From positions 23,238-87,237 of the forward strand of contig JAKSIL010000001.1 in the NCBI GenBank assembly GCA_024398815.1: a stretch of 64,000 bases of DNA. The letters are read 5' to 3'. Both the position numbers and the translations under genes were made by a program. Below the pieces are notes generated by a model. It was not told the origin of the DNA. It saw nothing but the letters and a program-made list of their open reading frames with translations, and made no database searches. Below, piece by piece: positions 14,394 to 30,930 of the stretch; the first letter of the stretch is position 1, and each line of letters opens with the position of its first letter. This stretch comes from Fibrobacter sp. Its GTDB lineage: Bacteria > Fibrobacterota > Fibrobacteria > Fibrobacterales > Fibrobacteraceae.

Positions 14394-15578
14394 CTAGATA
14401 TTGTTCTTGATGACTTCGATGATTGTCGGGTACCATTCCCCGGCACTCTTGTCGTAGATGTCGAATCCGACGCCGGTCAAGCCCCAGATATGCCAAGAAA
14501 GTCCGAGCTGGTTTGCCGTCTGTATGATGGCCTTGATGTACTGGGCTCTGTTGGCTTCGTCGGCGCCTTCGGCTTCGCAGTGGGCCGATGCTCCGAATTC
14601 ACCGATGTTCAAAGGAATCGAGGTTCCGTTCTTTCCCGGGAACAGTTTTTTAGACAAAGTAACGTAGCTTCTCAAGTCGCTCACAATCTTGAGAAGTGCT
14701 TCCTGGTCGTTCGGGTTCCACGGACCACGGCAGGGATTGCTGTTGTCGGTGCCTTGGTGGCTGTAGCTGTACGGTTCGTAGTAGTGGCCGTCGATAATCA
14801 TGTTGCTGTCCTTGATGTCGGCGAAGGCGTCCATCAGTTCGAACTTGCCCCAGTTGCCCGGATTCACGAGGATTGTCCTCGTGGGGTTCGTCTTGCGGAT
14901 GATTTCAATGGCCTTTTTCGTGAGTTCCGTCAGGTACTTGTCGCTCTGGCCTCTGGATTCGTTCAAGATTTCAAAGGCGAGGGAGTCGTCGGGGAAGTCC
15001 TTGAACTCTTCGGCAATCTGTTCCCAGATTCCGTAGAATTTGTCGAGCTGTCCGGTAGGGTCTTCGTAGAGTTCATTATAATGGTGCTGGTTGATGACCA
15101 CGGGCATGCCGAGGGCGTTTGCCATGTGCACATGCTTCTTCACGCCTTCCAGTCGGAGTTCCTGCAGCTGGTAAGGGGGTTCGTTTTGGGCGGTCTGGTT
15201 CCAGCGCACGGGCATGCGGATGGACTGGAAGCCTGCGTCTTTCACCATCTGGAACCATTCGTCTTGGATGGGATTGCTCCAGTAGCTGTCGTCGTAGTCC
15301 AATACGGCTCCGCTCTTGTTCGTGTTGTAGCCCGATTCCCAGGAGTTCCCGAAGTTGATGCCGTGGCCGAGTTTCTTGTTGAATTCAATGGCCCTGGCGT
15401 AGTTGGGGAGCCCGTCGTCGGTTTCTTCCTCGACGCTCGAACTGGATGCCGTCGTGTTGTCGGTCGCTTTCGATTCAGAGGACTTCGTTTCGGGTCCGGT
15501 AGAACTGGAGTCTTCCGAACACCCCTGCCAGAAGGCGGTAAGCGACAATACGAGTAGGGCCGATAGAATTTTTTTCAT
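14394..15578 (-). CDS. Glycoside hydrolase family 5 (endoglucanase-like) lipoprotein
   Basis: Lipobox WQGC; GINFGNSWE, GFQSIRMPVRW, NQHH, FEILNES (acid/base), HYYEP, IGEFG (nucleophile). Start at ATG 15578. Confidence 0.9.
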   Translation of the reverse strand: MKKILSALLVLSLTAFWQGCSEDSSSTGPETKSSESKATDNTTASSSSVEEETDDGLPNYARAIEFNKKLGHGINFGNSWESGYNTNKSGAVLDYDDSYWSNPIQDEWFQMVKDAGFQSIRMPVRWNQTAQNEPPYQLQELRLEGVKKHVHMANALGMPVVINQHHYNELYEDPTGQLDKFYGIWEQIAEEFKDFPDDSLAFEILNESRGQSDKYLTELTKKAIEIIRKTNPTRTILVNPGNWGKFELMDAFADIKDSNMIIDGHYYEPYSYSHQGTDNSNPCRGPWNPNDQEALLKIVSDLRSYVTLSKKLFPGKNGTSIPLNIGEFGASAHCEAEGADEANRAQYIKAIIQTANQLGLSWHIWGLTGVGFDIYDKSAGEWYPTIIEVIKNNI

Positions 15579-15688
15579 GATTTTTCCCTTTGTGTCCAAA
15601 AATACAACTAAGCCTGTCCCAAAAGACATTTTTGCCCAATGCCATTTTGAAAACCGACCTTATGTAAACATAAATTTATTTCTTTTGC

Positions 15689-15723: not shown

Positions 15724-15874
15724 CGAAACCATATAAACCGATGATTTGCCCGTCCTGGTTTTTCAAAAAAGGTTATCTTTGGGCATAAGTAGCTGTGTAT
15801 GGTCATTGGAACCCTTTTCCAAAGCTATATTTCGGCGACCTCTGTCTTTGGAGACTCCTAAGGATATGAAACAT

Positions 15875-16606
15875 ATGAGAATCTCATCTATCTTGAAGTG
15901 TGCTTTAGGCATCCTTCTTGCCGTGTCCCTTGCCGATGCGGCCTCTTTCAGTAGTTACCGCGACCGTGACGCGGGTCGATTTGTTCTTAAACCAGGTAAG
16001 CCCTTCCGCCCGGATAAAGACGTGGTTACCGTGGTGATGCGCGAGGCTATTCCCCGTGGCGGTGGATATACGTACCAGTATCCCCGTGAAAACCCTGAGC
16101 CGGTCCTTACCGACAAGTATGCCATGGAAGGCGCACTCTCCATGGAAATGGAACTTATTGCAAGCGACTATTCCGGTATCGCTATTTGTATTGCCGGTTC
16201 CGTCGACCTGACACCCTACCTCGAGGAAGGCGTCCTGGAGTTCTGGATCAAGGGTGAAAAGGGCGGCGAAAACGCACTTTTCGTGTTGGTTGACGACGGT
16301 GTCAAGAGCAACGGCGAATCCTTGCAGGTCAAGCTCCGTTCCAAGAGCCTTGGTGAAATCACTACCGAATGGACTCGCTTCAGCATTCCGCTCAAGCTGT
16401 TCGGAAATACCGGTGTGTACTGGGATGCCAAGAACACCCGCGAAGTCATGTTGCCCTTCAACTGGGCGAATTTCAAGGGTTTCCGTCTTGAAGTCCGTAA
16501 AGATGAGAACGAATCCTTCAAGGTGTGGATGGACGATATCGTGATCAAGAAGCACGGCAAGGCTTACGAAGGTCCTGCTTACTATCCGTTCCGCAACGAG
16601 ATTTAA
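15875..16606 (+). CDS. Secreted carbohydrate-binding protein (CBM30/CBM11-like galactose-binding-domain fold)
   Basis: Signal peptide; DLTPYLEEGVLEFWIKGEKGGE..EWTRFSIPLKLF..FNWAN..VWMDDI. Alternative start at 15866. Confidence 0.7.
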   Translation: MRISSILKCALGILLAVSLADAASFSSYRDRDAGRFVLKPGKPFRPDKDVVTVVMREAIPRGGGYTYQYPRENPEPVLTDKYAMEGALSMEMELIASDYSGIAICIAGSVDLTPYLEEGVLEFWIKGEKGGENALFVLVDDGVKSNGESLQVKLRSKSLGEITTEWTRFSIPLKLFGNTGVYWDAKNTREVMLPFNWANFKGFRLEVRKDENESFKVWMDDIVIKKHGKAYEGPAYYPFRNEI

Positions 16607-16615
16607 GGGGTTTTT

Positions 16616-19261
16616 ATGCGTAAACGTTATTTATCCGCTGTAATTTTGCTTTGCTCGTCTTTCCTGTTCGCTCAGGAGTTCGATAGCTATCAAGACGAAG
16701 CCCCCGTAGCTGAAGAAACCTCGACCGAAGCTTCTTCCGAAGAAGTCGCCGAACCGGCAGTCGAGGAAAGCGCTCCGGCAGAAGAAGTCGCCGAACCGGC
16801 GGCTGAGGAAAGCGCTTCCGAAGAAGTCGCCGAACCGGCAGCCGAAGAAAGTGCTTCCGAAGAAGTCGCCGAACCGGCAGCCGAAGAAAGTGCTTCTGAA
16901 GAAGTCGCCGAACCGGCAGCCGAGGAAAGTGCCCCCGAAGAAGTCGCCGAACCGGCACCTGAGGTTGCGTCCGATGCAGCCCCCGCCGAAGAAGAACCTA
17001 AGCTTGCTGGCGCCAAGATGGACAAGGCTCCGCCTCCGGTGCCTGCTGAAGCCAAGGTCTATATTCCTGCCGAAATGACTCCGGCCGACCGTGTCAAGTC
17101 CGTTCAAGACAACATGGACACTCTCGCCAACAACATGGAATCGACCCTTATCGGAAAGGACGACGCTCCTCTCGCCGTGTCGGGCTATATGGCCTTCCGC
17201 GTGAAGAACTTCGACTACACCGATATCGCTCCTGTCTATGGCGACGACAAGGCCCGCACCCAGGTCGACGCTACCCTCAAGATGAACATGGTGTTGATGC
17301 CGAACTCCTACATGACCCTTTGGACGAACATGACGTTCCCCTTCGATTTGACGGGTCTTTATACAAACTATTTGGCCGACCATCCGACTCGCAACCCGGG
17401 ATTCCACTGGACTCGCGTGCCGTTTGACCACAATACCGACTACACTCCTGCGTCTGTTGACGAAGAAATGAACTTCGGTGTCGACATCCGTTCTTCCGTG
17501 TTCGGCGCCTACGTGACCGCGGGCGGTGTTATCTGGGCGAACGCTTCTCCTTTGACCATGTGGGAACGTGAAACGATGCCGCGCTTTGCTTGGCAGTACG
17601 AAACGTTCGAAGAAGAAAAGACTGTCAGCACCTATTATAAGGAAAAGTCCTTCAAGCCTGTCAAGGAAGGTGGTCGTGCATTCTGGACGAACCGCTCCTT
17701 CGGTGGCGTTTTCATGAACGTTTACAACATGCCGTTCGGCATGATTGCCCAGGCGATGATTTCCCAGCCCAAGGACATGGACGCTGGTACTCGTGATGGT
17801 CTCCGCCTTTACGGTGGCCAGCCCAGCGAACTGGAAATGGGCGGTAACTACGACTTCCGCGGCGACGTCTATCACGCCCGTCTTGCCAAGACCAAGCTCT
17901 TTGACGGCATGACTCTCGGTGCGAACTACATCGGCGTGTTCTACGACGACGGCCTTATCGACGAAGACGAATTCGCCGGCTCCTGGACGAAGCTCAAGTT
18001 CCCGGGCGATCCGCACTTCGAAAACAACCAAATCGTTTCTATGGATATCAAGGGCAACATCAATCCCAAGTTCTACATCATGGCCGATGTGGGCGTAAGC
18101 TGGGATGACTCCACCTTGTTCCAAAACGTCGGAACTGACATGAAGTACGCCTACGACCGCGACTCCAGCCGCAGCGCCACGTCGAGCCCCGAGTTCGGTG
18201 TGTACGTGAAGGCCCAGGACAAGCACCTCGATTGGCTCCCGACTACTGTCGAAGCCGTGTATTTCACCAAGAACTTCTTCTCTCCCTATGGCATTACCGA
18301 CCCGTCCCGCCTGCGCAGCTGGCGCAAGGACGAGTTCTACCTGAACGCCGGTTCCCTCCGCTACGGTCCGAACATGGCCGGTATCAACTTCAAGTTCGAA
18401 CCTGAATTCAACCGTGGTCGCTTGGGCGTGCAGTACGGCCAGCATCGCCAGATTGAAGAAGGCAAGGACGTGCTCCTGTTCAACTACCGTTTGAACGGTC
18501 GTAACATGTGGGAAAGCACCAACTCCTGGACCAAGTACAATGCCTTGTTCTGGGCTGACTCTGGTAACGCTACCTCGGCCAACGGCTACGTGAATCGTGC
18601 CGGTGTGCTTACCAACCAGCGCAAGATGGAACGTCAGCGTGGTGGCCTCTACGGTGGAACTTGGGAACTCTGGGAATCCTTCGTGGCCTACGAAAACGCC
18701 GACCAGCTCAAGGAAGAAAAGGTTCCTGAACATGTCAAGTGGTCTTCTTACCTCTCTATCGACGGTGGTTACGACATCGGTCACTGGTTCGGCACCGACC
18801 GCAACGTGATGATGGCTGGCTATGCTTCCATTTCGGGCATTTCCAAGACCTTCGCTCCGGTCGCCTACAGCGAATCCCAGACAGACATGCTCCTGTGGAG
18901 CTTCTACGGTTTGTTTGAACCCACCTTCGCTCTTACTCCGACGGTTCACTTGGTTGGCCATGTAGGCCTCGAAACCTGGAAGTCCGAATACGGCTATACG
19001 GTTAACGATGCGAACGTGAGAACTACGGGCGTCAACGCCAGCGGTGCTTACGGCCTCCTGATTCCGACTTCGCAGTCTACCTACGAAAAGGCTCCTCTTG
19101 ACTACTATCAGACGGCATTTGGTATTGGCGTCGACTGGGACTTCTCTGCGCGAGCAGGCATCCATCTTCGCTACAAGTATGCTACACACACAGACAACTA
19201 TATATCGGAAAACGACTGGACCGGCCATTTCATTACGGCCGAAACCAAGGTCTGGTTCTAA
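16616..19261 (+). CDS. Predicted outer-membrane beta-barrel protein A with acidic N-terminal repeat
   Basis: Signal peptide; amphipathic strands; terminal TAETKVWF (beta-signal-like); paralogous to the next two genes. Confidence 0.7.
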   Translation: MRKRYLSAVILLCSSFLFAQEFDSYQDEAPVAEETSTEASSEEVAEPAVEESAPAEEVAEPAAEESASEEVAEPAAEESASEEVAEPAAEESASEEVAEPAAEESAPEEVAEPAPEVASDAAPAEEEPKLAGAKMDKAPPPVPAEAKVYIPAEMTPADRVKSVQDNMDTLANNMESTLIGKDDAPLAVSGYMAFRVKNFDYTDIAPVYGDDKARTQVDATLKMNMVLMPNSYMTLWTNMTFPFDLTGLYTNYLADHPTRNPGFHWTRVPFDHNTDYTPASVDEEMNFGVDIRSSVFGAYVTAGGVIWANASPLTMWERETMPRFAWQYETFEEEKTVSTYYKEKSFKPVKEGGRAFWTNRSFGGVFMNVYNMPFGMIAQAMISQPKDMDAGTRDGLRLYGGQPSELEMGGNYDFRGDVYHARLAKTKLFDGMTLGANYIGVFYDDGLIDEDEFAGSWTKLKFPGDPHFENNQIVSMDIKGNINPKFYIMADVGVSWDDSTLFQNVGTDMKYAYDRDSSRSATSSPEFGVYVKAQDKHLDWLPTTVEAVYFTKNFFSPYGITDPSRLRSWRKDEFYLNAGSLRYGPNMAGINFKFEPEFNRGRLGVQYGQHRQIEEGKDVLLFNYRLNGRNMWESTNSWTKYNALFWADSGNATSANGYVNRAGVLTNQRKMERQRGGLYGGTWELWESFVAYENADQLKEEKVPEHVKWSSYLSIDGGYDIGHWFGTDRNVMMAGYASISGISKTFAPVAYSESQTDMLLWSFYGLFEPTFALTPTVHLVGHVGLETWKSEYGYTVNDANVRTTGVNASGAYGLLIPTSQSTYEKAPLDYYQTAFGIGVDWDFSARAGIHLRYKYATHTDNYISENDWTGHFITAETKVWF
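16739..16960 (+). repeat. Intragenic 39-bp tandem repeat, about 6 copies of EEVAEPAAEESAS
   Basis: GAAGAAGTCGCCGAACCGGC at 16739, 16781, 16820, 16859, 16898 and 16937. Confidence 0.9.
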
Positions 19262-19279
19262 GGGGTTAAAGGTATAGCA

Positions 19280-21580
19280 ATGATGTACAAGTTTTTATTA
19301 TCCCTGCTTTTGGTTGCTTCTGCAGCCTCGGCCACTTCCGAGCTTGAACTGAACAAGCAGATCAAGGCCAAAGACGATTCCTTGAATGCTAAGCGCGGCC
19401 TTGAAATTGGCGGTAGCGTCAAGGGAATCCTGGTGAATTCCTACATGTCTTCCGACCAGGAAGATGGCGCCTTGAACAAGATGCCGAACGTGGAACGTTC
19501 GCAGTTCGTTACGGCAGATTTGGATTTCCACTTCCGCCCCTACGACGCCCTCCGCTTCAACATGTTGCTTCGTCTTGAAGCCGGCATGCAGAACTACTTC
19601 GCTTCTTCGGCGAAGAGCATTTCTGCGGCATGGCTCAATGTCGAAGGAAACGTGAACAAGGACTTCTACTGGGTGGTGGGTGATTTCCGCCAGCAGTACA
19701 GCCCTCTTACGCTTTTTGCCCCGACGGGTATCGATGATATCTTGTACGAACCGCTGATTTTCGCCCGCGCCCGTGAAATGGCCAAGAGCGACGCCCTTAT
19801 CGAAGGCAACCAGCGCAATCTTCAGGGTGTGAACCTGCAGTTCCGTCATGACTTTGGCGGTGCCGCCGGCGAACTTCGCGCTGAAGGTATTTTCGCTCGT
19901 CTCCGCCGCGTGCAAGTGCTCGACTTCTCGGGCGCCAACGGCAACTTGCTCCCGAACGGCGGCAACGCCGTCGTCAACAAAGGCTCCGTTTACGAAGGCT
20001 CCTACCAGTCAGCCAATATGGATAAGTGGCTGTTGAGCGCGAACCTCGAATACCTTCCCATGAACAAGAATGTGTTTGTCGGATTCACGGGCATGTACGT
20101 GTTTGATGACAGCACCTCGTTCAGGTACACCTATCGCACTAATAAAGAGGAAGTCATTGTCGACGGCCAGTTGAGCTACACTGACAACGGCGAACTCATC
20201 GACAAGGTTTCGAACCCGACGGCCTTTGACGACAACGGCGATTACCAGCTGAGCGTCATCAACCCGCTTGAAACCGATGCCCAGCGCACCACGATCCTTG
20301 CCGGTCGTGTCGGTGCCGATGTGGCTGGCTTCATGGGCAACAAGGACCTCACCTTGGATGTGATGGGCGAATTCGCCATGAGCAACGACAAACTTTACGA
20401 GGTGGTTCCGGTCTTGGATGCCGAAGGCAATCCGACTGGCTTCGATACCAAGCAGGTCGACAACGACGGTATGGGCATCATTGCCACGTTGAACGCCGGC
20501 TACAAGCTCCCCATGGGTCTTACCCTCGACCTTTCTGCCAACTACCTTATGAACGACAGCGCTTGGTTCAACAACCTCGCCCAGTCGCCGCAGTTCTTCG
20601 CCCAGCGTATCTTGAACACCGATAAGGATGGCAATGTGGTTCGCTATGGTGTGAACGCTCCGCTTTATTCCACCTTTGGTGCCCTCTACTTCTTCGACCC
20701 GAAGTTCACTCCGGTCTCTACGCAGCTTGCGACGACCGATGACCCGACGGTCAAGGGCCAGACCAACAGCTACAATATCGCTCCGTACAACAAGAACTCC
20801 TGGGGTACTCAGACTTATACCCGCAAGGAACTTGCCTTGATGAACGCCATGGCCGACAACGCCGTGCAGATGGCTCTCCCGAACGGTCTTGCCACCGCCA
20901 ACAGAAACGGCGCCATGGTGAACTTCAGAGCCGCCTACAATGACTTTGCCGAGATGTCCGCCATCTTCAACATGCTCAAGCAAGACAAGAGCCAGAGCCC
21001 CTTGTTCAAGGAAGCTGAATTCATGGAATACGGTGCCGGCCTCAAGTGGGACATCTTCAAGATGCTCGGCTTCTCGCTCCCGCTCGAAATCTCCGGTAGC
21101 TATAAGCACTCCCTCAAGACTCAGGAACTTACCGACGAAACGAAGGCTGCTGTTCCGGGTGCCGAAAAGGGCGAACTTAAGATGGACTTCATCAACGCTG
21201 GTCTCTATGTGCAGTACCTGCCCCGCCTGGGCGTGAGCGCTGGTTTCCAGATGATCAACATGGAATACGACAACGTTTCTTCTGCAACATACGCTCGTCC
21301 GGCTCCGGGTTATGAAACCCCGCTCATGAAGGGCAATCAAATGCAGTGGATGGTCGGTCTCGACTACACCATCGAAAAGAACGTTTACCTGGCTCTGAAC
21401 TACGGTATCATCACGGTTGAAAACACCTACAATACCAGTGCAGGAGTCGGTCAGAACATGCCCAACTACATCGATGCCACCGTCAAGGACGAGACTGGCG
21501 CTGTTACGGGTACCGTTCCGGAATTCAAGCATAAATTCTCCCAGGCTGTTGTCGAAGCAGTCTTGAATGTGAATTTCTAA
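19280..21580 (+). CDS. Predicted outer-membrane beta-barrel protein B
   Basis: Signal peptide; terminal EAVLNVNF; motifs YSPLTLF, QRNLQGVN, LPNGLATANRNG. Confidence 0.7.
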   Translation: MMYKFLLSLLLVASAASATSELELNKQIKAKDDSLNAKRGLEIGGSVKGILVNSYMSSDQEDGALNKMPNVERSQFVTADLDFHFRPYDALRFNMLLRLEAGMQNYFASSAKSISAAWLNVEGNVNKDFYWVVGDFRQQYSPLTLFAPTGIDDILYEPLIFARAREMAKSDALIEGNQRNLQGVNLQFRHDFGGAAGELRAEGIFARLRRVQVLDFSGANGNLLPNGGNAVVNKGSVYEGSYQSANMDKWLLSANLEYLPMNKNVFVGFTGMYVFDDSTSFRYTYRTNKEEVIVDGQLSYTDNGELIDKVSNPTAFDDNGDYQLSVINPLETDAQRTTILAGRVGADVAGFMGNKDLTLDVMGEFAMSNDKLYEVVPVLDAEGNPTGFDTKQVDNDGMGIIATLNAGYKLPMGLTLDLSANYLMNDSAWFNNLAQSPQFFAQRILNTDKDGNVVRYGVNAPLYSTFGALYFFDPKFTPVSTQLATTDDPTVKGQTNSYNIAPYNKNSWGTQTYTRKELALMNAMADNAVQMALPNGLATANRNGAMVNFRAAYNDFAEMSAIFNMLKQDKSQSPLFKEAEFMEYGAGLKWDIFKMLGFSLPLEISGSYKHSLKTQELTDETKAAVPGAEKGELKMDFINAGLYVQYLPRLGVSAGFQMINMEYDNVSSATYARPAPGYETPLMKGNQMQWMVGLDYTIEKNVYLALNYGIITVENTYNTSAGVGQNMPNYIDATVKDETGAVTGTVPEFKHKFSQAVVEAVLNVNF

Positions 21581-21592
21581 GGGAGGCGCAAG

Positions 21593-23749
21593 ATGAAATT
21601 GAATAAGGATATGTTTAAGATGACTTCCAGAATCTCGCTTCTCCTTTGTGGAGCCGTGGCGTTCGCTTCTGCCCAGGATTCTTCCCTGGTAAATCAGCAG
21701 AAGAGCCTTCTCGGCACGCTAGATTCCCTCAATTCTTCGGTCATGGGACTTCGCCTGGGCGGTACCGCCAAGGCTGGCGTGGTTTCGTCGGCCATGAGTT
21801 CCGATCAGCTGGTCAACGGTGATGACTACCGCGAAAACGAAGCCTTTACTGATGTGAACCTGGTTGTTACCGCTCGCCCCAGTGAAGAAACCGAGGCCCG
21901 CGTTGAACTCCGCGTTCATAAGGATTGGCAGAATGCTTACGAAGAATCCGTGAACCCGGTCATTGGCCACTGGTTCAGCTATGACGGAAAAATCGTGAAC
22001 AAGCATGTGGACTTCAACTTGGGCTACATGCGCATCGGTTATACTCCGCTCACCATTTACGTTCCGCAGACGGAAATTCTCCAGGAACCGGAAATATTCG
22101 CAAGCAAGCGCATTGAATCCCTTGCCCTCCGCAATCTCGACACGACTTCGAATCGCGTGATGCAGGGTTTGAACGCTCGCTACAATAGCTTCGAAGTCGG
22201 TCCGTTCTCGAACATCTACGCACAGATGACGGGTGCTCGTCTTCGTAACATCGCAAAGAAGAACGACGAAGTGTTCTTCGACTTCGACTGGAGCGATCGC
22301 TACCTGTTCGGTGCGAATGCCGGTGTCGAAGCCTTTGGCGCCACTCTCGGCGGAAACTTCGTTTACACCTTCGACCGCGAAAAGAGCACGCGCTCTAGGG
22401 ACGACTCCCATATCGGTTCTGTCTACTATGAAGACAACATGATTTATTCTGGCGTGGCAAGCTACGATACGAAGGATCTCATCATGAACGGCTCCATCCA
22501 TGCAGGACTCGGTGCTGAATTCGCCGGATCCAAGTGGACCTACACTCAGGACGCCTACGAACAGGATACTGTCGGGACGCTCTCTGTCGGTGGCTATGGC
22601 TATCCCAAGTTCGACGAAAACGGTTTCGCTCTCGACGACGCCGGTGCAACTGATTATGACACCTTGTTCTATGTGTATCGCTCCACTACGGGTGAATACA
22701 GCTGGAACAAGACTGAGCTGGACGAACTCAAGGGCATCGCCCTTCATGTGGATCCCTATGTCAAGGGTGAAATCGGAAGCATCGCATTCGATGTCAAGGG
22801 AACGTTCGTCAAGAACGACGAAAAGTTCTGGTCTGAACAGGCCGCCTCCAACTACTATGTCGGCGGCAGCTCTATCCTGAATGCGGAAGCCCTCATTACG
22901 GGTGCTAACGAATCGGTGGTGGAACGCTTCCGTTCGGGAACCCTCGAAAACATGTACTTCTCCATCTACAACACCAACGTGTTGCAGCAGCAGAACTTGA
23001 TGAGCAAGAACGAAGGTTCTCCGATTCTTGTCGAAGGCCTCGAAGAATCTTACTACACCTTCGGTCGCTTGAACAACAACTACAAGCTCGGCCACTTCTA
23101 CAAGAATGGTTACGAAGCCGTGGCTAGCAAGCGCATGGAATATGCAAACCAGGCCCTGTTCGCCGACCCGTCGGTGAACCTCGCCATGCCCATGGGTCTT
23201 GCGACTCCCGACCGCATGGGTTTTGCCGCCGATGCCGACTTCGCCTGGAACAGCGCCGTTTCTGTGAACGTCCGCTTCTCCAAGTACAGCCAGGATGCCG
23301 TGGATAACGACTATACGACTCTCGGTGCAGGCGCTGGCGTTGACGTCGCCCCGTTCCTCGGTCTCGACCGTCGCCTTATCGTGCAGGGCTCCTACGAAAA
23401 TTCCGAAGAAAGCGAAGGCATGAAGCGCAAGGCCAATCGCATCGTGGCTGGCCTTACCGCCGACGTTTGGGGCCCCTTCACCGTCCTTGGCGGCGTGCAG
23501 ATGCTCACCAAGGAATATGGCATTGGCTTCGGCTTCGAAAACGGTGCCGTTGTGAACAAGGTCGAAGAAATGCTCGCCATGGGCGGCCTGCAGATCAAGC
23601 TTGGCGCCGGCGCAGTATTCGACTTCGAAGGCGGTCTTATGTCTAACACGGTCAAGTACACCATGCCCAACGCCGAAGGTGTTGCCGAAGCGAAGGAACT
23701 TGGCATCGACAAGTTGCTCCTGATGGGTAACGTAAAGATTTTGTTCTAG
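21593..23749 (+). CDS. Predicted outer-membrane beta-barrel protein C
   Basis: Signal peptide; terminal MGNVKILF; motifs YTPLTIY, NRVMQGLN, MPMGLATPDRMG. Confidence 0.7.
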   Translation: MKLNKDMFKMTSRISLLLCGAVAFASAQDSSLVNQQKSLLGTLDSLNSSVMGLRLGGTAKAGVVSSAMSSDQLVNGDDYRENEAFTDVNLVVTARPSEETEARVELRVHKDWQNAYEESVNPVIGHWFSYDGKIVNKHVDFNLGYMRIGYTPLTIYVPQTEILQEPEIFASKRIESLALRNLDTTSNRVMQGLNARYNSFEVGPFSNIYAQMTGARLRNIAKKNDEVFFDFDWSDRYLFGANAGVEAFGATLGGNFVYTFDREKSTRSRDDSHIGSVYYEDNMIYSGVASYDTKDLIMNGSIHAGLGAEFAGSKWTYTQDAYEQDTVGTLSVGGYGYPKFDENGFALDDAGATDYDTLFYVYRSTTGEYSWNKTELDELKGIALHVDPYVKGEIGSIAFDVKGTFVKNDEKFWSEQAASNYYVGGSSILNAEALITGANESVVERFRSGTLENMYFSIYNTNVLQQQNLMSKNEGSPILVEGLEESYYTFGRLNNNYKLGHFYKNGYEAVASKRMEYANQALFADPSVNLAMPMGLATPDRMGFAADADFAWNSAVSVNVRFSKYSQDAVDNDYTTLGAGAGVDVAPFLGLDRRLIVQGSYENSEESEGMKRKANRIVAGLTADVWGPFTVLGGVQMLTKEYGIGFGFENGAVVNKVEEMLAMGGLQIKLGAGAVFDFEGGLMSNTVKYTMPNAEGVAEAKELGIDKLLLMGNVKILF

Positions 23750-23752
23750 GAG

Positions 23753-24823
23753 ATGGCTATGAATAAGAAATTTAAGTACGCTTTGGGTTTTGCCGTCGCA
23801 GCAGCGCTTGTCGCTTGCGGTGCCGATAGCATTGACGCCCCCGATTCCGAAAACTGGCCTTCCGATTTCTCCACGTCCGAATACGCGCGAGTCAATCCCG
23901 ATTTGGCTATCTACCAGTGCATCACCGCCGTGTCCGATGCGAACACCGCCTACTTGGACAGCGCTCGCGAAGTTCTCAAGAACGAACTCATGTCGGCGGG
24001 TCTCGATGAAAAGGCCGCTACGGATTCTTCCAAGAAGTTGAAGAGGTCCTTTAGCGACGAGGCTGAACTGGCAACGTTCTTCTCTGATAGCGAGGAAGCC
24101 GTAAAGACCCTCTTTACCGACTATGCCAACATCAATGCCGACTACTGGCCCGGTATCGACGCCATGAAGAACGGCATGACCGATGCCGAAGGCAACATCA
24201 ACATCGACGGCCAGCGTGCCATGGAATACCGCACTGCCTTCGAAAAGTTCCACCGTTACGGAAATACTGCCGCTCAGGACTTGGCCTTCTTGCAGTCCAT
24301 CAAGATTGACTCGAGCCTTATCCGCATGCAGTATATCATGGCGGGCAAGTACGAAGGTCGCGCCTACCGCTCCTGCAGGGAAGGCGAAGCCGTCACCAAG
24401 AAGCTCGACATCACCGTGACCTACGATACTCTCAAGAACGCCGACACGGTCTATGTTTACGATACTGTCATGGTGAGCGACACCGCCAAGGCGAGCATCA
24501 AGTATGTCATTTCGTACACGGATTCGACAGGTGCCGAAGCCTTGGATACGCTTTTGCTGCAGGCTCTCGAACAGCACAAGAGTGAGGATTCCACGATTGT
24601 CGTGACGGACACTCTTTACGACGACGCCATCACTACGAAGCCGACGCCTGTTAAGGTTGATTCCACCATCAGCGACAAAATCAAGAAGACCACGGTTACG
24701 CAGCCTACCAGCTCCCGTATCATCGTGCCGAAGGGCAGCCTTGGTCGCGTTTGGGATTTCTCCAACGATTACTACTGCTTGAACGAAGCCGACGGTGTTG
24801 TTTACTTAATCGGGAATCCGTAA
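23753..24823 (+). CDS. Hypothetical lipoprotein
   Basis: Lipobox LVAC; starts 3 bp after the upstream stop. Confidence 0.75.
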   Translation: MAMNKKFKYALGFAVAAALVACGADSIDAPDSENWPSDFSTSEYARVNPDLAIYQCITAVSDANTAYLDSAREVLKNELMSAGLDEKAATDSSKKLKRSFSDEAELATFFSDSEEAVKTLFTDYANINADYWPGIDAMKNGMTDAEGNINIDGQRAMEYRTAFEKFHRYGNTAAQDLAFLQSIKIDSSLIRMQYIMAGKYEGRAYRSCREGEAVTKKLDITVTYDTLKNADTVYVYDTVMVSDTAKASIKYVISYTDSTGAEALDTLLLQALEQHKSEDSTIVVTDTLYDDAITTKPTPVKVDSTISDKIKKTTVTQPTSSRIIVPKGSLGRVWDFSNDYYCLNEADGVVYLIGNP

Positions 24824-24832
24824 GAGGGTTAT

Positions 24833-25876
24833 ATGAAAAAGATCTTTTTAACCGCTATTGCTTTACTTGCTGCAGTTTCCTTTGCAGCTCCCTTCAAGGT
24901 CGTGGGCTACTTCCCCTACTGGGCCCAGTATAGCCAGTTCGCCCCGAAGGACATCCGCTACGATTTCGTAACGCACATCCATTATGCTAACCTCGTTCCC
25001 GGCGAAGACGGCAGCATCAACTATGCCGACGAAAACGACGCCCCGAACTTCGAGGAATTGGCCAAGCTTTCTGCCGAACACAACGTGGCCCTGCTCGCTG
25101 TGATTGGCGGTTTCGAAGCTGAAGCCACTCTCAAGGGTATCGCTACCGATGATTCCAAGCTGAGCGCCTTCTGCGACGCCGCCTCGGAATGGGTCGAAAA
25201 GTACAACCTCGGCGGTGTGGAACTGGATTGGCAGAACGCCACTTCCGAAGATGCCGCCGATATCGGCAAGATGGTCTCCGCTCTCAAGTCCAAGCTCTCG
25301 GGCAAGGAAGTGTCGGTGACTGCCTATGCCGCTACCGCCGATGCCTACGAGTCTATTGGCGATGCAGACTATGTAACTGTTTCCGTGGGCGACCAGATGG
25401 ACGAATCCTCTTCCGAAGTCAAGCCCAACCTTTCCAAGCAGGCTGTCGAAAGTGCTGTGCAGGCTGTCACCGGCAAGGGCGTCTCCTCCGACAAGGTCGT
25501 GCCCGTGGTGACGCTTTACGGAAAGACTTTCGCAGGCGCTACTGGCCTCGGCTCTTCCCACCAGGGTATCGGCAGCGGAAACGAAGGCTACCTTTCTTAC
25601 AAGGAACTCATGTCCAAGTTCGAAACCCCCGACTACAAGGTGAGCTTCGACGAAGAAAGCGCTTCCGAAGTTGCCGTGAGCAGCTCCGAGACCGTCGTTT
25701 TCTCTGGAATTCCCTCCATGAAGGTCATGAGCAACATGGTCAAGGACAATGGCTGGGCCGGAATGGCCGTTTACGATTTGAGTCAGGACCACAACGAACC
25801 CATCGTTTCCTTGATGGTGACTATCGGTTTGGTGCTCCGTCCCGACGTAAATTATGCCGCAAAAAAGAAAAAATAG
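24833..25876 (+). CDS. GH18 (chitinase-fold) protein with degenerate catalytic motif
   Basis: KVVGYFPYW, THIHYA, VIGG, LYGKTF, LSYKEL; DxxDxDxE appears as LGGVELDWQ; basic tail AAKKKK. Confidence 0.85.
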   Translation: MKKIFLTAIALLAAVSFAAPFKVVGYFPYWAQYSQFAPKDIRYDFVTHIHYANLVPGEDGSINYADENDAPNFEELAKLSAEHNVALLAVIGGFEAEATLKGIATDDSKLSAFCDAASEWVEKYNLGGVELDWQNATSEDAADIGKMVSALKSKLSGKEVSVTAYAATADAYESIGDADYVTVSVGDQMDESSSEVKPNLSKQAVESAVQAVTGKGVSSDKVVPVVTLYGKTFAGATGLGSSHQGIGSGNEGYLSYKELMSKFETPDYKVSFDEESASEVAVSSSETVVFSGIPSMKVMSNMVKDNGWAGMAVYDLSQDHNEPIVSLMVTIGLVLRPDVNYAAKKKK

Positions 25877-25992
25877 TGTAAAATCGCACACATATTTGAA
25901 TTTTTTGCCCTAAAACCCTACGAAACCGACAAAAAGTATTTATATTTTCACTAAACCATTTCCCAATGTTGGGAGATAAAGAGAGAGATACT

Positions 25993-27048
25993 ATGAACAC
26001 AAAAATTAAAATGGCTATGACCATTGCCGCTGCTGCAGCGATGGCCAACGCTCTCTGCGACGGCGCAGGGACCGTGAATACCTCCATCTGGTTCGATGGT
26101 TCCGACCAGCAGGTTAACACTGGTGGAGACGGCATGTACGAATATGGCGTCTGCGAAACCTCCACCATGGGTTACTGGTACGACTACGATGACCGTAAGA
26201 ACGACAACGGTGGTTCTTATGCCCTCTATCCGTTCGACTCCACTGGCTACTATGGCTCTTTCGTTGCTCCGCAGATTGAAAACCTCGGCTACGTCGCCAT
26301 CCAGTACGTCCTCGTCGACCCGACCACTACCGGTCAGACCGCTGAATATCCGTACAACTTCGTTGGCTTCGGCTTCAACACTGTCGGCGGCTCCCAGGAT
26401 CCTCTGGACATCTCCGCTGCCGGTGGTCTCTGCGCTACCTATACCACTGATAACGCTGTGACCCTCGAAGTTGCTGAAACCGTTTCCGGTGACGCTTCTT
26501 GCTCCATCACCCTCGCCAAGGCTTCTTCTCCGACGACAGTCGACAAGGCTATCGACGACTTCAAGCAGCCGACTTGGGTTGGCGCCGCCAATAAGCTCGA
26601 AAGCTGCGCTGCTGCATTCGCTGCTGCCAAGGCTGTGAAGTTCAAACTCGACGGTGGTGCTTCTGACGCTTCCGGTACGCTCCGTATTTTCGAAGTCGGC
26701 CCGAAGGGCACTTGCACTGGCGCTGGCTCTGTAAGCTCTGCCGAACCTGCTTCCTTTGGTTGCAAGTCTGATGGCCAGGGCGGTGCTGACTGCGCTGGCG
26801 GTGGTGGCGTCGGTATCAAGGGCGTCAAGGCTGCTTCTGCTGTCAAGGCTACCCTCTCCGGCCGTACCCTTTCGTTCAGCGGCATCTCCTCTGATGCTTC
26901 TTTCGAAATCGTTAGCCTCCAGGGCCAGGTCGTGAAGAGCGGCAAGATCGCTTCTTCCGTGAGCCTCGCTAGCATCAACGCTGGTGTCTACATGGTTCGC
27001 GTTGCCGGCAAGTCCGTCAACATGGCCCAGAAGATCCTCGTGAAGTAA
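25993..27048 (+). CDS. Secreted CBM11/CIA30-like protein with T9SS-type C-terminal domain, copy 1
   Basis: Signal peptide; GYWYDYDD..GGS, FVGFGFN, DISAAGGLCATY, DFKQPTW; CTD FEIVSLQGQVVKSG..GVYMVRV..QKILVK. Start at ATG 25993. Confidence 0.75.
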   Translation: MNTKIKMAMTIAAAAAMANALCDGAGTVNTSIWFDGSDQQVNTGGDGMYEYGVCETSTMGYWYDYDDRKNDNGGSYALYPFDSTGYYGSFVAPQIENLGYVAIQYVLVDPTTTGQTAEYPYNFVGFGFNTVGGSQDPLDISAAGGLCATYTTDNAVTLEVAETVSGDASCSITLAKASSPTTVDKAIDDFKQPTWVGAANKLESCAAAFAAAKAVKFKLDGGASDASGTLRIFEVGPKGTCTGAGSVSSAEPASFGCKSDGQGGADCAGGGGVGIKGVKAASAVKATLSGRTLSFSGISSDASFEIVSLQGQVVKSGKIASSVSLASINAGVYMVRVAGKSVNMAQKILVK

Positions 27049-28182
27049 TTTTACTCACTAGATTTTGAAAAAAAAGGAGTCCCGTGTACGGGACTCTTTT
27101 TTTTATATATATTAATTTTGTACATCATTGCGCTTCTTTAAAGATTTTGCGATGTTGAAAAACGAAGGGAGTGATATCATGAATACTACAATTAAAACAC
27201 TTATGACCATTGCCGCTGCTGCAGCGATGGCCAACGCTCTCTGCGACGGCGCAGGGACCGTGAATACCTCCATCTGGTTCGATGGTTCCGACCAGCAGGT
27301 TAACACTGGTGGAGACGGCATGTACGAATATGGCGTCTGCGAAACCTCCACCATGGGTTACTGGTACGACTACGATGACCGTAAGAACGACAACGGTGGT
27401 TCTTATGCCCTCTATCCGTTCGACTCCACTGGCTACTATGGCTCTTTCGTTGCTCCGCAGATTGAAAACCTCGGCTACGTCGCCATCCAGTACGTCCTCG
27501 TCGACCCGACCACTACCGGTCAGACCGCTGAATATCCGTACAACTTCGTTGGCTTCGGCTTCAACACTGTCGGCGGCTCCCAGGATCCTCTGGACATCTC
27601 CGCTGCCGGTGGTCTCTGCGCTACCTATACCACTGATAACGCTGTGACCCTCGAAGTTGCTGAAACCGTTTCCGGTGACGCTTCTTGCTCCATCACCCTC
27701 GCCAAGGCTTCTTCTCCGACGACAGTCGACAAGGCTATCGACGACTTCAAGCAGCCGACTTGGGTTGGCGCCGCCAATAAGCTCGAAAGCTGCGCTGCTG
27801 CATTCGCTGCTGCCAAGGCTGTGAAGTTCAAACTCGACGGTGGTGCTTCTGACGCTTCCGGTACGCTCCGTATTTTCGAAGTCGGCCCGAAGGGCACTTG
27901 CACTGGCGCTGGCTCTGTAAGCTCTGCCGAACCTGCTTCCTTTGGTTGCAAGTCTGATGGCCAGGGCGGTGCTGACTGCGCTGGCGGTGGTGGCGTCGGT
28001 ATCAAGGGCGTCAAGGCTGCTTCTGCTGTCAAGGCTACCCTCTCCGGCCGTACCCTTTCGTTCAGCGGCATCTCCTCTGATGCTTCTTTCGAAATCGTTA
28101 GCCTCCAGGGCCAGGTCGTGAAGAGCGGCAAGATCGCTTCTTCCGTGAGCCTCGCTAGCATCAACGCTGGTGTCTACATGGT
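26016..28182 (+). repeat. About 980-bp apparently identical direct repeat (about 26016-26996 and 27202-28182)
   Basis: Copies 1 and 2 match at offset 1186; the shadow ORFs in the track are also identical. Confidence 0.9.
27068..27104 (+). terminator. Intrinsic terminator
   Basis: A-tract GAGTCCCGT-GT-ACGGGACTC T8. Confidence 0.85.
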
Positions 28183-28234
28183 CCGCGTTGTGGGCAGGTC
28201 CGTCAACATGGCCCAGAAGATCCTCGTGAAGTAA
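27179..28234 (+). CDS. Secreted CBM11/CIA30-like protein with T9SS-type C-terminal domain, copy 2
   Basis: Near-identical to copy 1; start at ATG 27179 after GGGAG. Confidence 0.75.
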   Translation: MNTTIKTLMTIAAAAAMANALCDGAGTVNTSIWFDGSDQQVNTGGDGMYEYGVCETSTMGYWYDYDDRKNDNGGSYALYPFDSTGYYGSFVAPQIENLGYVAIQYVLVDPTTTGQTAEYPYNFVGFGFNTVGGSQDPLDISAAGGLCATYTTDNAVTLEVAETVSGDASCSITLAKASSPTTVDKAIDDFKQPTWVGAANKLESCAAAFAAAKAVKFKLDGGASDASGTLRIFEVGPKGTCTGAGSVSSAEPASFGCKSDGQGGADCAGGGGVGIKGVKAASAVKATLSGRTLSFSGISSDASFEIVSLQGQVVKSGKIASSVSLASINAGVYMVRVVGRSVNMAQKILVK

Positions 28235-28255
28235 TTTGATTTAGAATATTTTCAC

Positions 28256-28290
28256 AAAAAAGAGTTCCGCATGTCGGAACTCTTTTTTTT
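28256..28290 (+). terminator. Intrinsic terminator
   Basis: A-tract GAGTTCCG-CATGT-CGGAACTC T8. Confidence 0.85.
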
Positions 28291-28364
28291 ATTTATATAT
28301 ATTATTGTGTACAACATTGTGCCTGGTGTTTTTTTGCGATGTTGGTATTTAAGGAGGAAATGTT

Positions 28365-29420
28365 ATGAACATGAAAGTTAAAATGGCTATGGGCGTTATC
28401 GTCGCTGCTGCATTGGCCAATGCCGATTGCGGTGGAGATGGCACTGTTAACACTTCTATCTGGTTTGATGGGTCGGATCCCTGGCTGCTAGTCGAAAATC
28501 TTATTCTGTACGACAATGGCGACTGCGAAGAAAATTCTGTGAGTTATTGGTACGACTACGATGACCGTAAGAACGATGATGGCGGTTCCTATGCCCTTTA
28601 TCCGTTTAAAGCCGATGAATACGGTTCTCTCGTTGGCCCGGAAATCGAAAACCTTGGCTATGCGACCATCAAGTACGTCCTTGTCGATCCGACCATTACC
28701 GGTCAGACCGATAAAAATCCGTATAATTTCGTTGGTTTCGGTTTTAATACTACCAGCCATTCTAGCGAATCGTTGAATATTTCAGCCGCTGAAGGTCTTT
28801 GCGCAACCTATACCAGTGATCACGATGTGACTCTCGAAGTTGCTGCAGAAGCTTCTGGCGACGCTTCTTGCTTTGTTACCCTACCCAAGGCTACGGTGCC
28901 GACGATGGTCGACAAGGCTATTGACGACTTCAAGCAGCCGACCTGGGCTTCTGCTGAAAACAAGCTCGCAAGTTGCGCCGATGCTTTCAAGGCGGCCAAG
29001 GCTGTCAAGTTCCAGGTTAACGGGGCCGGTGCCGATTTGACAGGTACGCTCCGTGTTTTCGAAGTCGGCCCGAAGGGCACTTGCACGGGTGAGGGGGCTA
29101 TCAGTCCGAACGAACCTGAGAATAGCGGTTGCAAGTCCGATGGCGATGGCGATGCTGTTTGTGACATTTCCCTTGCCTTTGTGGGTTCTGCTGCGGTTGC
29201 TGCTATTTCCAGCGTGAAGGCCACCCTCTCCGGCCGCACCCTTTCGTTCAGCGGCATCTCCTCTGATGCTTCTTTCGAAATCGTTAGCCTCCAGGGCCAG
29301 GTCGTGAAGAGCGGCAAGATCGCTTCTTCCGTGAGCCTCGCTAGCATCAACGCTGGTGTCTACATGGTCCGCGTTGTGGGCAGGTCTGTCAACATGGCAC
29401 AGAAGATTCTTGTAAAGTAA
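28365..29420 (+). CDS. Secreted CBM11/CIA30-like protein with T9SS-type C-terminal domain, copy 3 (diverged)
   Basis: Same architecture and length (351 aa); diverged N-domain; C-terminal domain protein-identical to copy 2; AGGAGG RBS. Confidence 0.75.
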   Translation: MNMKVKMAMGVIVAAALANADCGGDGTVNTSIWFDGSDPWLLVENLILYDNGDCEENSVSYWYDYDDRKNDDGGSYALYPFKADEYGSLVGPEIENLGYATIKYVLVDPTITGQTDKNPYNFVGFGFNTTSHSSESLNISAAEGLCATYTSDHDVTLEVAAEASGDASCFVTLPKATVPTMVDKAIDDFKQPTWASAENKLASCADAFKAAKAVKFQVNGAGADLTGTLRVFEVGPKGTCTGEGAISPNEPENSGCKSDGDGDAVCDISLAFVGSAAVAAISSVKATLSGRTLSFSGISSDASFEIVSLQGQVVKSGKIASSVSLASINAGVYMVRVVGRSVNMAQKILVK

Positions 29421-29477: not shown

Positions 29478-29520
29478 ATATATATTATGTTGACTACGTT
29501 TGGCATATAACGAGGTTTTT

Positions 29521-30930
29521 ATGCGTTTTCAAAAGTTATTACTGGCCTTGCCTTTGGTTTTCGGTTTGATGGCGTGCTCTGAAGATGAAGCGCCTCCTGT
29601 GGCCGCCCCCCCCCAGTCGAGCAACCCGACTCCGGTGGTTGACCCGAACCAGCAGCAACAGCCGATTACGTCTGTCGACAATCCTGTCGCCACTACGGTG
29701 AGCCTGCCCGCCGGTTCCAACCTGGCTTTTGCGACCAATCTGTTTAATACATGGAAGTCTCGCTGGATTATTTCGTTGAAGGACGAAATTAGCGGTGGTT
29801 CTACGCTCGACTACGACATGTACCAGGGCAAGCGCGCACAGGAACTCCTGACGCAGAAGATGGGCAAGTTCCACGACAATCCCCTCCGCGTCATCTGGGA
29901 TGGCGGCAACAGCACGAACTGCGAACTTACGGACATGACGAAATGGGGTTCCGTCTCGTTTACCCCTGCCCTCCGCAAAAAGCTCGGTTGTACCGTTTCC
30001 GAAGGTGTGGGCTACGGCATGCTTATCGCCCTCTTCCACGGTGATAAGGACTTGTTCGACGGCTTGTGGGCCTACAACATCATCGCCCGCGACAACAACA
30101 ACAACGGCCTGATGCCTTGGGAATTGCAGTCCTTCAGCCGCACGGTTTCTACCGCTGCCGCCCTTGACGCCGACCTCGACGTGGCGACCGCCTTGATTCT
30201 TGCTTCGGTCAAGTGGAGTAACCAGCTTTACCTGAACGATGCCTTGGAACTTGTCACGGCTATTTTCAACAAGGGCTTGAATAGCGAAAATCTGCTTATC
30301 CGTCCGGGCGACACCTGGGCCAACAAGGACGTTTACAACCTGAGCTATTTCTCTCCTGTGGCGTTGAAGTTGTTCAATACCGTGATGCCCGGTGTGGGCT
30401 GGGATGCCATTCTTGCCGCGAACTATGAATATATGAAGAACATCCAGGCGGCTGGGGCGATTCCTCTGTTCCCGGACTGGTCCAATGCCGCAGGTCAGCC
30501 GACCGACCCGAAGAACGGTTCTGCCGCCTCTTCTTACATGCTCTTCGATAAGGAATCCGTGCGTATTCCTTGGCGCATGGCCTGGGACATGTACTGGTAC
30601 CAGGATGCCAGCGCCCAGCAGATCTTGACCGGGATGTCCGGCTTTATCGTCCAGGCGACCGGTGGCAATCCGGCTGCCATTTCCACGAATTCCTACAACT
30701 ATAGCACTGGCGCTCTTTCGACAAGCCAGATTGTGGGCGAACATTATACGGGCGCCTATTGCCTGATGGGCATGGGTGTGAATCAGGGTTGGTTCGATAG
30801 TTGCTTTGCTTCATTCAACAATTCCGCTGCAAATTACCAGGCTGTGGGGTATACGGGAACCTACTTCAAGGAAATCCTGATGCTCATGTACAGCACGCTT
30901 ATGAACGGAGGTTTTGTTAAGTTAATGTAA
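29521..30930 (+). CDS. Glycoside hydrolase family 8 lipoprotein
   Basis: Lipobox LMAC; Pro/Gln linker; TVSEGVGYGML, GLMPW, AALDADLDVA, NLSYFSP, VRIPWR. Confidence 0.88.
   Translation: MRFQKLLLALPLVFGLMACSEDEAPPVAAPPQSSNPTPVVDPNQQQQPITSVDNPVATTVSLPAGSNLAFATNLFNTWKSRWIISLKDEISGGSTLDYDMYQGKRAQELLTQKMGKFHDNPLRVIWDGGNSTNCELTDMTKWGSVSFTPALRKKLGCTVSEGVGYGMLIALFHGDKDLFDGLWAYNIIARDNNNNGLMPWELQSFSRTVSTAAALDADLDVATALILASVKWSNQLYLNDALELVTAIFNKGLNSENLLIRPGDTWANKDVYNLSYFSPVALKLFNTVMPGVGWDAILAANYEYMKNIQAAGAIPLFPDWSNAAGQPTDPKNGSAASSYMLFDKESVRIPWRMAWDMYWYQDASAQQILTGMSGFIVQATGGNPAAISTNSYNYSTGALSTSQIVGEHYTGAYCLMGMGVNQGWFDSCFASFNNSAANYQAVGYTGTYFKEILMLMYSTLMNGGFVKLM

Follow-up and report, generated by a model that had tools for sequence, protein, structure and literature searches.

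A cluster of six genes (g1–g6), all on the forward strand, lies at positions 15866–25876 of a 64,000-nucleotide stretch of DNA from Fibrobacter sp. (contig JAKSIL010000001.1; the whole stretch is hereafter called the window). The intergenic gaps are 9, 18, 12, 3 and 9 bp, and by inspection all six products have a Sec-type signal peptide at their N-terminus. The open reading frame (ORF) calls, the signal peptides and the lipobox found in g5 are in agreement with an initial annotation made from the DNA sequence, which described six co-oriented, exported genes with gaps of 3–18 bp. A scan with TIGR04183 and PF18962 found no type IX secretion system (T9SS) C-terminal sorting domain (CTD) in g1–g6; this domain is present in three downstream genes. 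We propose that the operon probably encodes an outer-membrane uptake module specific to the Fibrobacterota, which would be independent of TonB and SusD and act on beta-1,4-glycans, in Fibrobacter cellulose-derived chains or cellodextrins.

The first gene, g1 (15866–16606, +), codes for a secreted stand-alone protein of 246 amino acids with a carbohydrate-binding module (CBM) of family CBM30, a Sec signal peptide and no lipobox. An alternative ATG start is found at 15875, and the frame is open from a TTG at 15746. Its membership of CBM30 is clear (PF21582, 62.5 bits for a cut-off of 27), and its profile matches the CBM30 structures available for C. thermocellum CelJ (1WMX/2C24, E = 3e-11). Homologues of g1 have 63–93% identity across 135 clusters, every named one of which comes from Fibrobacter or Fibromonas lineages, and with 71–93% identity across the Fibrobacteraceae loci it is by far the best conserved member of the operon. 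The conservation includes the N- and C-terminal extensions in addition to the CBM. The conserved N-terminal peptide (residues 26–45, 15941–16000, +) has the motif F-S-x-Y-R-D-R-D-x-x-R-F ... K-P, in which F28, R32, R34 and F39 hardly vary. As a Sec signal is the only one it carries, the protein would by default be placed in the periplasm.

Three predicted outer-membrane beta-barrels follow. In g2 (16616–19261, +; 881 amino acids), a linker of acidic 13-residue repeats is located between the signal peptide and the barrel, encoded by a 39-bp tandem repeat (16734–16964, +; 5.8 copies, 88% matches, Tandem Repeats Finder score of 344). The linker is variable, and the g2 orthologues range from 743 to 881 amino acids. 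The other two barrels, g3 (19280–21580, +; 766 amino acids, about 22 strands) and g4 (21593–23749, +; 718 amino acids), are clear paralogues according to BLASTP (E = 2e-18). Although BLASTP gave nothing significant for g2 against g3 or g4, an hhalign comparison of its profile with that of the g3/g4 family gave a probability of 96.7% (E = 4e-10, 644 columns), and an SPLT(L/I) motif is common to both families, so that g2 is, at the profile level, a remote paralogue of g3/g4. The AlphaFold2 (AF2) model of g3, built from an alignment of 57 sequences, has a predicted local distance difference test (pLDDT) score of 86.2 and a predicted template modelling (pTM) score of 0.85. It has an N-terminal periplasmic helix and about 22 long strands (counted from the DSSP string alone), short turns which alternate with long loops, of which residues 139–178 and 426–542 form the long conserved ones, and no plug domain. 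The C-terminal Phe is invariant in the g3 family. The g2 model (pLDDT 75, pTM 0.78) also consists chiefly of long strands, and the protein ends in WF. The three paralogous beta-barrels of the initial annotation are therefore supported by BLASTP for g3/g4, by hhalign for g2, and by the models of g2 and g3. Each of the three occurs just once in this genome.

No Pfam or NCBIfam family was found above cut-off for g2–g5, and the same holds in Pfam for 57 and 40 relatives of the barrel families scanned singly. Neither Plug nor TonB_dep_Rec matched g2–g4 or any of these 57 and 40 family members at E ≤ 0.1. The DUF1302 label that UniRef gives to a Hallerella homologue was rejected, as none of the 57 family members matches PF06980 at E ≤ 0.1. 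Comparison of g3 with the PDB using Foldseek and VIA-align returned generic large barrels (TM-score at most 0.35, Z of 10–15, none outstanding), among them MtrB, ushers, SlpA, DcaP, maltoporin, chitoporin, AlgE and the barrels of TonB-dependent transporters (TBDTs). Maltoporin and chitoporin rank near the top of these matches (Z = 13.6–14), and the Z values for sugar porins (13–15) are no different from those for ushers and TBDT barrels. In the ESM Atlas, the nearest clusters of both g2 and g3 contain Fibrobacterota only, followed by DUF6029, SLH porins, MtrB/PioB and alginate-export-like clusters. Because the structural matches are generic and the Atlas neighbours come from the Fibrobacterota only, g2–g4 are best described as a predicted outer-membrane barrel family which is restricted to this phylum, has no Pfam model, and does not consist of TonB-dependent transporters. 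For the barrels, the profile and structure searches which the initial annotation had suggested thus lead to no known family and no close solved relative.

The last two genes are g5 (23753–24823, +), coding for a fast-evolving lipoprotein of 356 amino acids with the lipobox LVAC, and g6 (24833–25876, +), coding for a protein of 347 amino acids with the fold of glycoside hydrolase (GH) family 18. Orthologues of g5 are 219–356 amino acids long and only 24–50% identical, and no Pfam or NCBIfam family was found for g5. The GH18 assignment of g6 is based on a match of 106.9 bits across the full PF00704 profile and on matches to many solved chitinases and chi-lectins, down to E = 1.7e-58. The DxDxE motif reads GVELDWQ (GGVELDWQ in its longer form), meaning that the catalytic acid/base Glu is replaced by Gln134 (nucleotides 25232–25234). 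This replacement is common to the eight genus- or family-level orthologues nearest to the window in the alignment, and the two most divergent Fibrobacteraceae orthologues (L021 and L022) also lack the Glu (Leu or DGG in its place). GH18 relatives beside the orthologous cluster in another family have an intact DGIDLDWE. Judged by this motif, g6 is a GH18-fold pseudo-enzyme. Its Lys-rich C-terminal tail is conserved within the Fibrobacteraceae.

The strongest argument for a role in uptake comes from the comparison across the Fibrobacterota, in which the barrels recur inside glycan-catabolic loci of two forms. The first (form A) was sampled as 29 loci from at least 10 families other than the Fibrobacteraceae. 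A g2-like gene adjoins a single g3-like gene in all 29 loci, and in all 28 where the contig continues, the barrels are followed by a CBM30-CBM30-CBM11 protein of 630–1276 amino acids. Most of these proteins also have a GH51-type catalytic domain, which is the architecture of Fibrobacter Cel51A. An Opp-type ATP-binding cassette (ABC) importer (SBP_bac_5, two permeases and two ATPases) is adjacent in 22 of the 29 loci, one or two GH94 phosphorylases in 13, and a GH1 in two. Just two well-flanked loci depart from this pattern, with no ABC importer, GH94 or GH1. On its gene content, form A is a complete cellodextrin utilisation locus, whose sole outer-membrane components would be the barrels. An enzyme of the type "(CBM30;)CBM11;CBM11;GH51_3" from an uncultured Fibrobacterota lineage has been reported as expressed in the metaproteome of enrichments on filter paper or woodchips (PMC11653725). 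The CBM30-GH51-type proteins (L026–L052, e.g. L028:3630-6773:-) are mostly lipoproteins with the motif C-G-x-Q-x-K-P-L-P right behind the lipobox, possibly a Fibrobacterota-specific signal for sorting or docking. A few of them have no Cys and retain K-P-L behind the signal peptide, and the Fibrobacter Cel51A orthologue (contig C43, 15036–18218) has an ordinary Sec signal, with the motif present only in shortened form.

The second form (form B) was sampled as three loci from two families (f3 and f4), all of which have a stand-alone CBM30-like gene, g2, g3 and g4, beside a GH20 hexosaminidase and catalytically intact GH18 genes, three at most. In two of these genomes, form A is present as well. 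One three-barrel locus is followed by alginate-lyase-like and PL14-like genes (L025:695-3793) and another by two additional GH18 genes, one of which gives a weak match of the EndoS type (L024:12455-15074); the substrate of form B may be broader than chitin. In a maximum likelihood tree of the barrels (quick search, midpoint rooted), g3 of the Fibrobacteraceae and the first barrel of form B form one group, g4 and the second barrel another (Shimodaira–Hasegawa-like approximate likelihood ratio test, SH-aLRT, of 99 each), and all form-A barrels belong to a third clade (SH-aLRT 97). From these groupings, the Fibrobacter operon is the orthologue of form B, and the g3/g4 duplication predates the family Fibrobacteraceae. 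It appears that the Fibrobacter module was taken over from a locus for glycans containing N-acetylglucosamine (GlcNAc), with loss of GH18 catalysis and of GH20, and with cellulases now in the flanks. Since the operon is orthologous to the form linked to GH18 and GH20, a vestige, or a lectin evolved from it, is a more likely identity for the inactive GH18 than a protein made for the purpose of binding glucan. The initial annotation had presented the CBM and the pseudo-GH18 as binding subunits of an outer-membrane complex. Its wider claim, a glycan import module independent of SusC/D, finds strong comparative support in the ABC, GH51-type and GH94 genes of form A and in the GH18 and GH20 genes of form B.

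Within the Fibrobacteraceae, the g3 family is present in all 55 genomes, compared with 110 of 151 for the Fibrobacterota; several of the 41 genomes in which it was not found are 98–100% complete. The whole operon is syntenic in the 10 Fibrobacteraceae loci compared, nine of which have the divergent GH5 upstream of g1, and GH5, GH8 or GH9 cellulases flank it in nearly all family members. Identities across these loci are 43–77% for g2, 42–72% for g3, 34–71% for g4 and 24–50% for g5. The best 80 hits of a scan of genome contigs were all from the Fibrobacteraceae, the closest named relative being Fibrobacter sp. UBA7003. Six loci whose g2 is 61–62% identical to that of the window (L063, L064, L066, L067, L071 and L074) resemble Hallerella/Fibrobacteraceae genomes; their record titles (Sodaliphilus sp., Eggerthellaceae, Oscillospiraceae, Alistipes onderdonkii, Methanomethylophilaceae and Senegalimassilia; "cleanbin") look mislabelled.

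One of the loci (L013) is likely the operon FSU_2007-2012 (= Fisuc_1525-1530) of F. succinogenes S85, because a GH9 follows its GH18 and its signal peptide would be cleaved at 35–36, as published for Fisuc_1525. The initial annotation had mentioned a similar S85 cluster, for which this is, by that assignment, the counterpart. It is a direct orthologue of the whole operon, sharing the gene order and the divergent GH5 upstream. The identities between the window and S85 are 87% for g1, 58% for g2, 46% for g3, 47% for g4 and 55% for g6. In published S85 RNA-seq data, Fisuc_1525-1530 have mean regularised log (rlog) values of 11.35, 11.85, 11.65, 11.87, 10.13 and 11.65 (PMC6204037 Table S2), with a coefficient of variation (CV) of 1.5–2% over cultures on glucose, cellobiose or cellulose that grew at different rates, which places them in the constitutive cluster; the expression of Fisuc_1530 is above the 90th percentile (PMC6204037). 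The comparison of cellulose with glucose called for in the initial annotation is therefore answered in part, with expression that is high and constitutive. The high expression had been deduced from a strongly biased codon usage, for which the values obtained here are only moderate (effective number of codons, Nc, of 38–44, roughly the 13th–40th percentile of long ORFs in the genome), so it is the RNA-seq data of the S85 orthologues, and not codon bias, that support it. In one metatranscriptome, short contigs with 95–100% identity cover 26 of 30 bins of the region, and one spans the g1–g2 junction. This is a weak hint of in situ expression, as carry-over of DNA is possible and a single transcript is not demonstrable from such contigs.

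All six S85 proteins were found in the envelope proteome, FSU_2011 (the g5 orthologue) included (PMC6851124 supplement). The g1 orthologue, FSU_2007, is named "cellulose-binding protein" in proteomics tables, and the S85 genome paper gives no characterised activity for it; for FSU_2012, the g6 orthologue, the enzyme table of the same paper has the entry "cellulose binding" under characterised activity. Both were detected in the extracellular medium of S85, which contains vesicles. In the open papers searched, these two proteins are the only ones discussed, FSU_2008-2011 being found solely in supplementary tables under the labels of hypothetical, membrane or lipoproteins. FSU_2007, FSU_2009, FSU_2010 and FSU_2012 can be linked to a 2007 study of S85 cellulose-binding proteins, solely through the UniProt accession series and the citations in other papers. 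As g3 and g4, and not g2, share this accession series, the pair g1–g3 was chosen for complex prediction.

The complex of g3 (residues 22–766) and g1 (residues 26–246) was predicted with our own alignments, which makes the calibration only rough. The interface score (ipSAE) was 0.70, 0.70 and 0.72, the best of three controls giving 0.00; the mark of 0.70 is reached by 58 of 80 solved complexes and by 2 of 110 mismatched pairs. Contact agreement between the runs was at least 47%, with a partner pLDDT of 73. The confident contacts of g1 are restricted to residues 26–45, its conserved N-terminal extension, while the position of the CBM domain is not confidently placed. On the g3 side, the contact residues are 86–92, 124–130, 139–142, 187–189, 257–266, 343–347, 360–362 and 403–405, which according to the strand order of the model map to the barrel's short turns and lower wall, i.e. 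to its periplasmic mouth. The interface is conserved on both sides (F28, R32, R34 and F39 in g1; R86, P87 and P142, the last in the SPLT motif and all of them invariant or almost so, in g3). The N-terminal peptide of g1 is therefore predicted to insert in the periplasmic mouth of g3. Docking from the periplasm would fit a g1 that carries a Sec signal only, and the periplasmic enrichment of Cel51A in S85 (PMC4668043); the report of g1 and g6 in the S85 medium is harder to square with it. The surface capture by the CBM put forward in the initial annotation is not what the model predicts, as it places the CBM30 protein at the periplasmic mouth instead.

A possible working scheme can be drawn from these observations. 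Surface enzymes of the GH5, GH8, GH9 and GH51 families would release oligosaccharides or single chains, which would cross the outer membrane without TonB or SusD through the barrels as the putative channel. Held at the periplasmic mouth of g3 by its N-terminal peptide, g1 could capture the incoming glucan with its CBM and thereby give direction to the process, with the GH18-derived lectin g6 and the lipoprotein g5 in accessory roles, as subunits for binding or as a scaffold. The products would then be cut in the periplasm by endoglucanases such as Cel51A, imported by an ABC system of the SBP5 type and phosphorolysed by GH94. The endoglucanase, ABC and GH94 functions are encoded beside the barrels in other Fibrobacterota and elsewhere in Fibrobacter genomes. 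Gene content, synteny, paralogy, fold class and published expression are established; we infer transport itself, its direction, the substrate, and the contacts and stoichiometry of the subunits. A bolder version, to which we give a modest chance and which is offered as a tentative one, is a new class of TonB-independent translocon that would thread single cellulose chains (chitin in the sister form) from the surface of the fibre into the periplasm, with the CBM as a ratchet and, for cutting, a GH51 tethered to the outer membrane on its periplasmic side, possibly as a g2-g3-g4 hetero-oligomer. Such a translocon, if true, would be the long-postulated "chain uptake" of the non-cellulosomal, non-processive cellulose degradation by Fibrobacter.

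Several points weigh against uptake of cellulose-derived glycans by this operon. The link between barrels and uptake is one of guilt by association, and the score of the g1–g3 complex is the model's own confidence, obtained with our own alignments, which supports binding and is no demonstration of it. In this genome, Cel51A, GH94 and a family-5 binding protein are on other contigs, unlinked to the operon. The descent from the form linked to GH18 and GH20 means that a role in cellulose use needs a change of substrate. The abundance in the S85 envelope on cellulose relative to glucose varies by about −1.3 to +1.1 fold (PMC6851124 supplement), and such steady abundance, like the constitutive expression, also fits housekeeping porins. 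Finally, the presence of g1 and g6 in the medium and their reported binding to cellulose could indicate surface exposure rather than a periplasmic location, vesicles being the alternative.

This last point leads to a different function for the barrels, that of anchoring or displaying CBM30 proteins (g1 and those of the Cel51A type) at the cell surface by means of a peptide or lipid anchor inside the barrel, by analogy with RcsF-OmpA and MtrB-MtrA/C. The CBM30 proteins have no T9SS CTD and are nevertheless reported as cellulose-binding and as envelope or extracellular proteins in S85, the GH51-type proteins are mostly lipoproteins with the conserved C-G-x-Q-x-K-P-L-P motif, the predicted contact is indeed a peptide inside a barrel, and MtrB and the ushers are among the top Foldseek matches, albeit with low TM-scores. 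The predicted contacts are however at the short turns and the lower wall, with no chain threaded outward, Cel51A of S85 shows periplasmic enrichment, a single anchor would hardly call for two or three barrels of this size, and an uptake step is what predicts an association with cytoplasmic phosphorylases and with an importer whose binding protein is periplasmic; we therefore consider anchoring unlikely. That g2–g4 would be general major porins or structural proteins of the outer membrane, with CBM and GH neighbours merely reflecting a high density of carbohydrate-active enzymes, is distinctly unlikely in our view. The high, constitutive expression in S85 on all substrates, the abundance nearly unchanged between glucose and cellulose, the generically porin-like fold and the presence in all genomes of the own family and in 110 of 151 in the phylum are all compatible with it. 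That the family was not found in the 41 other genomes, several of them nearly complete, would on the other hand be unusual for an essential general porin, the gene order with the CBM30 protein recurs in at least 10 families and in two catabolic contexts with gaps of a few bases, and the predicted g1–g3 interface is specific and made of conserved residues.

Uptake could also be directed at another substrate, the Fibrobacter operon still serving GlcNAc glycans (chito-oligosaccharides, peptidoglycan fragments or N-glycans) instead of cellulose. Orthologous loci are flanked by intact GH18 and GH20 genes, the GH18 fold is kept in all Fibrobacteraceae loci, and Raut et al. (2019) tied the S85 "chitinase" to peptidoglycan turnover. 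Against this, the catalytic Glu is gone in all 10 Fibrobacteraceae orthologues compared and GH20 is lost from the locus, nearly all family members have GH5, GH8 or GH9 cellulases in its flanks, g1 is a genuine CBM30 protein, and growth of F. succinogenes is limited to glucose, cellobiose, cellodextrins and cellulose as substrates (PMC3079729), which makes a persisting GlcNAc role very unlikely. The reverse direction, export of a glycocalyx or cellulose-like polymer through the barrels as in AlgE, BcsC or PgaA, with the CBM protein and the GH as accessories, is the hardest to believe: while alginate-export-like clusters are among the remote look-alikes, a periplasmic hydrolase is often part of export operons and a glycosyltransferase family 2 (GT2) gene lies 3 kb upstream, the Pfam and NCBIfam scans found no synthase, co-polymerase or tetratricopeptide repeat (TPR) scaffold in the operon, and the partners of the barrels elsewhere are a binding-protein-dependent importer and catabolic GH94, GH1 and GH20 enzymes.

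The flanks of the operon in the window contain cellulases on both sides. The divergent neighbour upstream is a GH5 cellulase (14394–15629, −; Pfam Cellulase, 134.8 bits), and the downstream flank has a GH8 (29500–30930), a GH5 (31100–33283) and a second GH8 (33268–35220). The GH5/GH8 flanks of the initial annotation are thus confirmed by Pfam, as is its observation that no TonB-dependent receptor, SusD or ABC gene is found among the scanned ORFs of the window. Between g6 and the first downstream GH8, three tandem T9SS-CTD genes of about 350 amino acids each are found (25966–29420), the second sharing 97% and the third 70% identity with the first. A single gene of this kind is found behind the GH18 of some relatives (L014 and L021), and there is none at this place in S85. 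Contigs of the one metatranscriptome over 25966–29420 have about 4–10 times the word depth of the operon, contig depth being a poor measure of expression.

For the genome as a whole, which is 85.75% complete, no match to SusD (PF07980) was obtained, the control B. thetaiotaomicron giving matches. The idea that Fibrobacter has no TonB-dependent receptors at all was dropped, as Plug/TBDT genes are present in this genome and in relatives. Here, two Plug-domain genes were found, both on contigs other than that of the operon. The likely S85 genome has four Plug matches (one of them below the family cut-off), and two genomes from other families (G112 and G138) have 7–10.

Degradation of crystalline cellulose by Fibrobacter proceeds without cellulosomes, processive exoglucanases or Sus-like systems, and its mechanism and the crossing of the outer membrane are described as unresolved (PMC3079729, PMC4668043, PMC6851124). 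The individual S85 proteins were already known; what is new, within the open literature searched, is the system and its locus forms across the phylum, as the six genes are not described there as one system (subscription papers were outside this search). We name these six proteins as the best candidate for the outer-membrane step, the S85 orthologues being abundant and constitutive, and the predicted docking gives a residue-level hypothesis that is open to mutagenesis, cross-linking and cryo-EM. If confirmed, the module would also be a target for engineering or modulating fibre digestion in the rumen.

Among known systems, the SusC/SusD polysaccharide utilisation loci (PULs) of the Bacteroidota share with the loci described here the grouping of outer-membrane barrel and glycan-binding genes with a lipoprotein glycanase and the genes for downstream catabolism, as well as a modular build with substrate-specific versions, which would here be a cellodextrin type and a GlcNAc type. 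In contrast to SusC, the Fibrobacter barrels have no match to the plug or TonB-receptor families, and the genome gave no SusD match; instead of one TBDT, the Fibrobacterota have two or three barrels that are paralogous, import across the inner membrane relies on an Opp-type ABC system, and the binding protein is predicted on the periplasmic side and not outside the cell. The LamB/MalE/MalFGK system and the Vibrio ChiP porin with its chitobiose ABC importer are similar in that a dedicated barrel lets linear oligosaccharides pass independently of TonB and is followed by a binding-protein-dependent ABC importer, as would be the case here. Those porins are however homotrimers of 16–18 strands, whereas g3 is modelled with about 22 strands and belongs to a family without a Pfam model, with two or three paralogues, and the Fibrobacter barrels have a dedicated CBM subunit with predicted docking by an N-terminal peptide. 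The Cytophaga hutchinsonii locus named in the initial annotation does exist, chu_1276-chu_1280 having been described as an "atypical PUL" for cellulose (PMC12016534). Compared by its published description only, it is likewise a cluster of a cellulose specialist with outer-membrane proteins, a CBM-like binding protein and no SusC/D pair, and the physical presence of that binding protein is reported to matter more than its binding capacity (PMC12016534). It belongs to another phylum, its expression is induced by cellulose, in contrast to the constitutive S85 operon, and the nearest Atlas clusters of the Fibrobacter g2 and g3 come from the Fibrobacterota only. We regard chu_1276-1280 as the closest conceptual analogue, nothing found here pointing to homology. 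If confirmed, the Fibrobacterota module would represent a third strategy for the uptake of glycans across the outer membrane, beside SusCD and the classical sugar porins.

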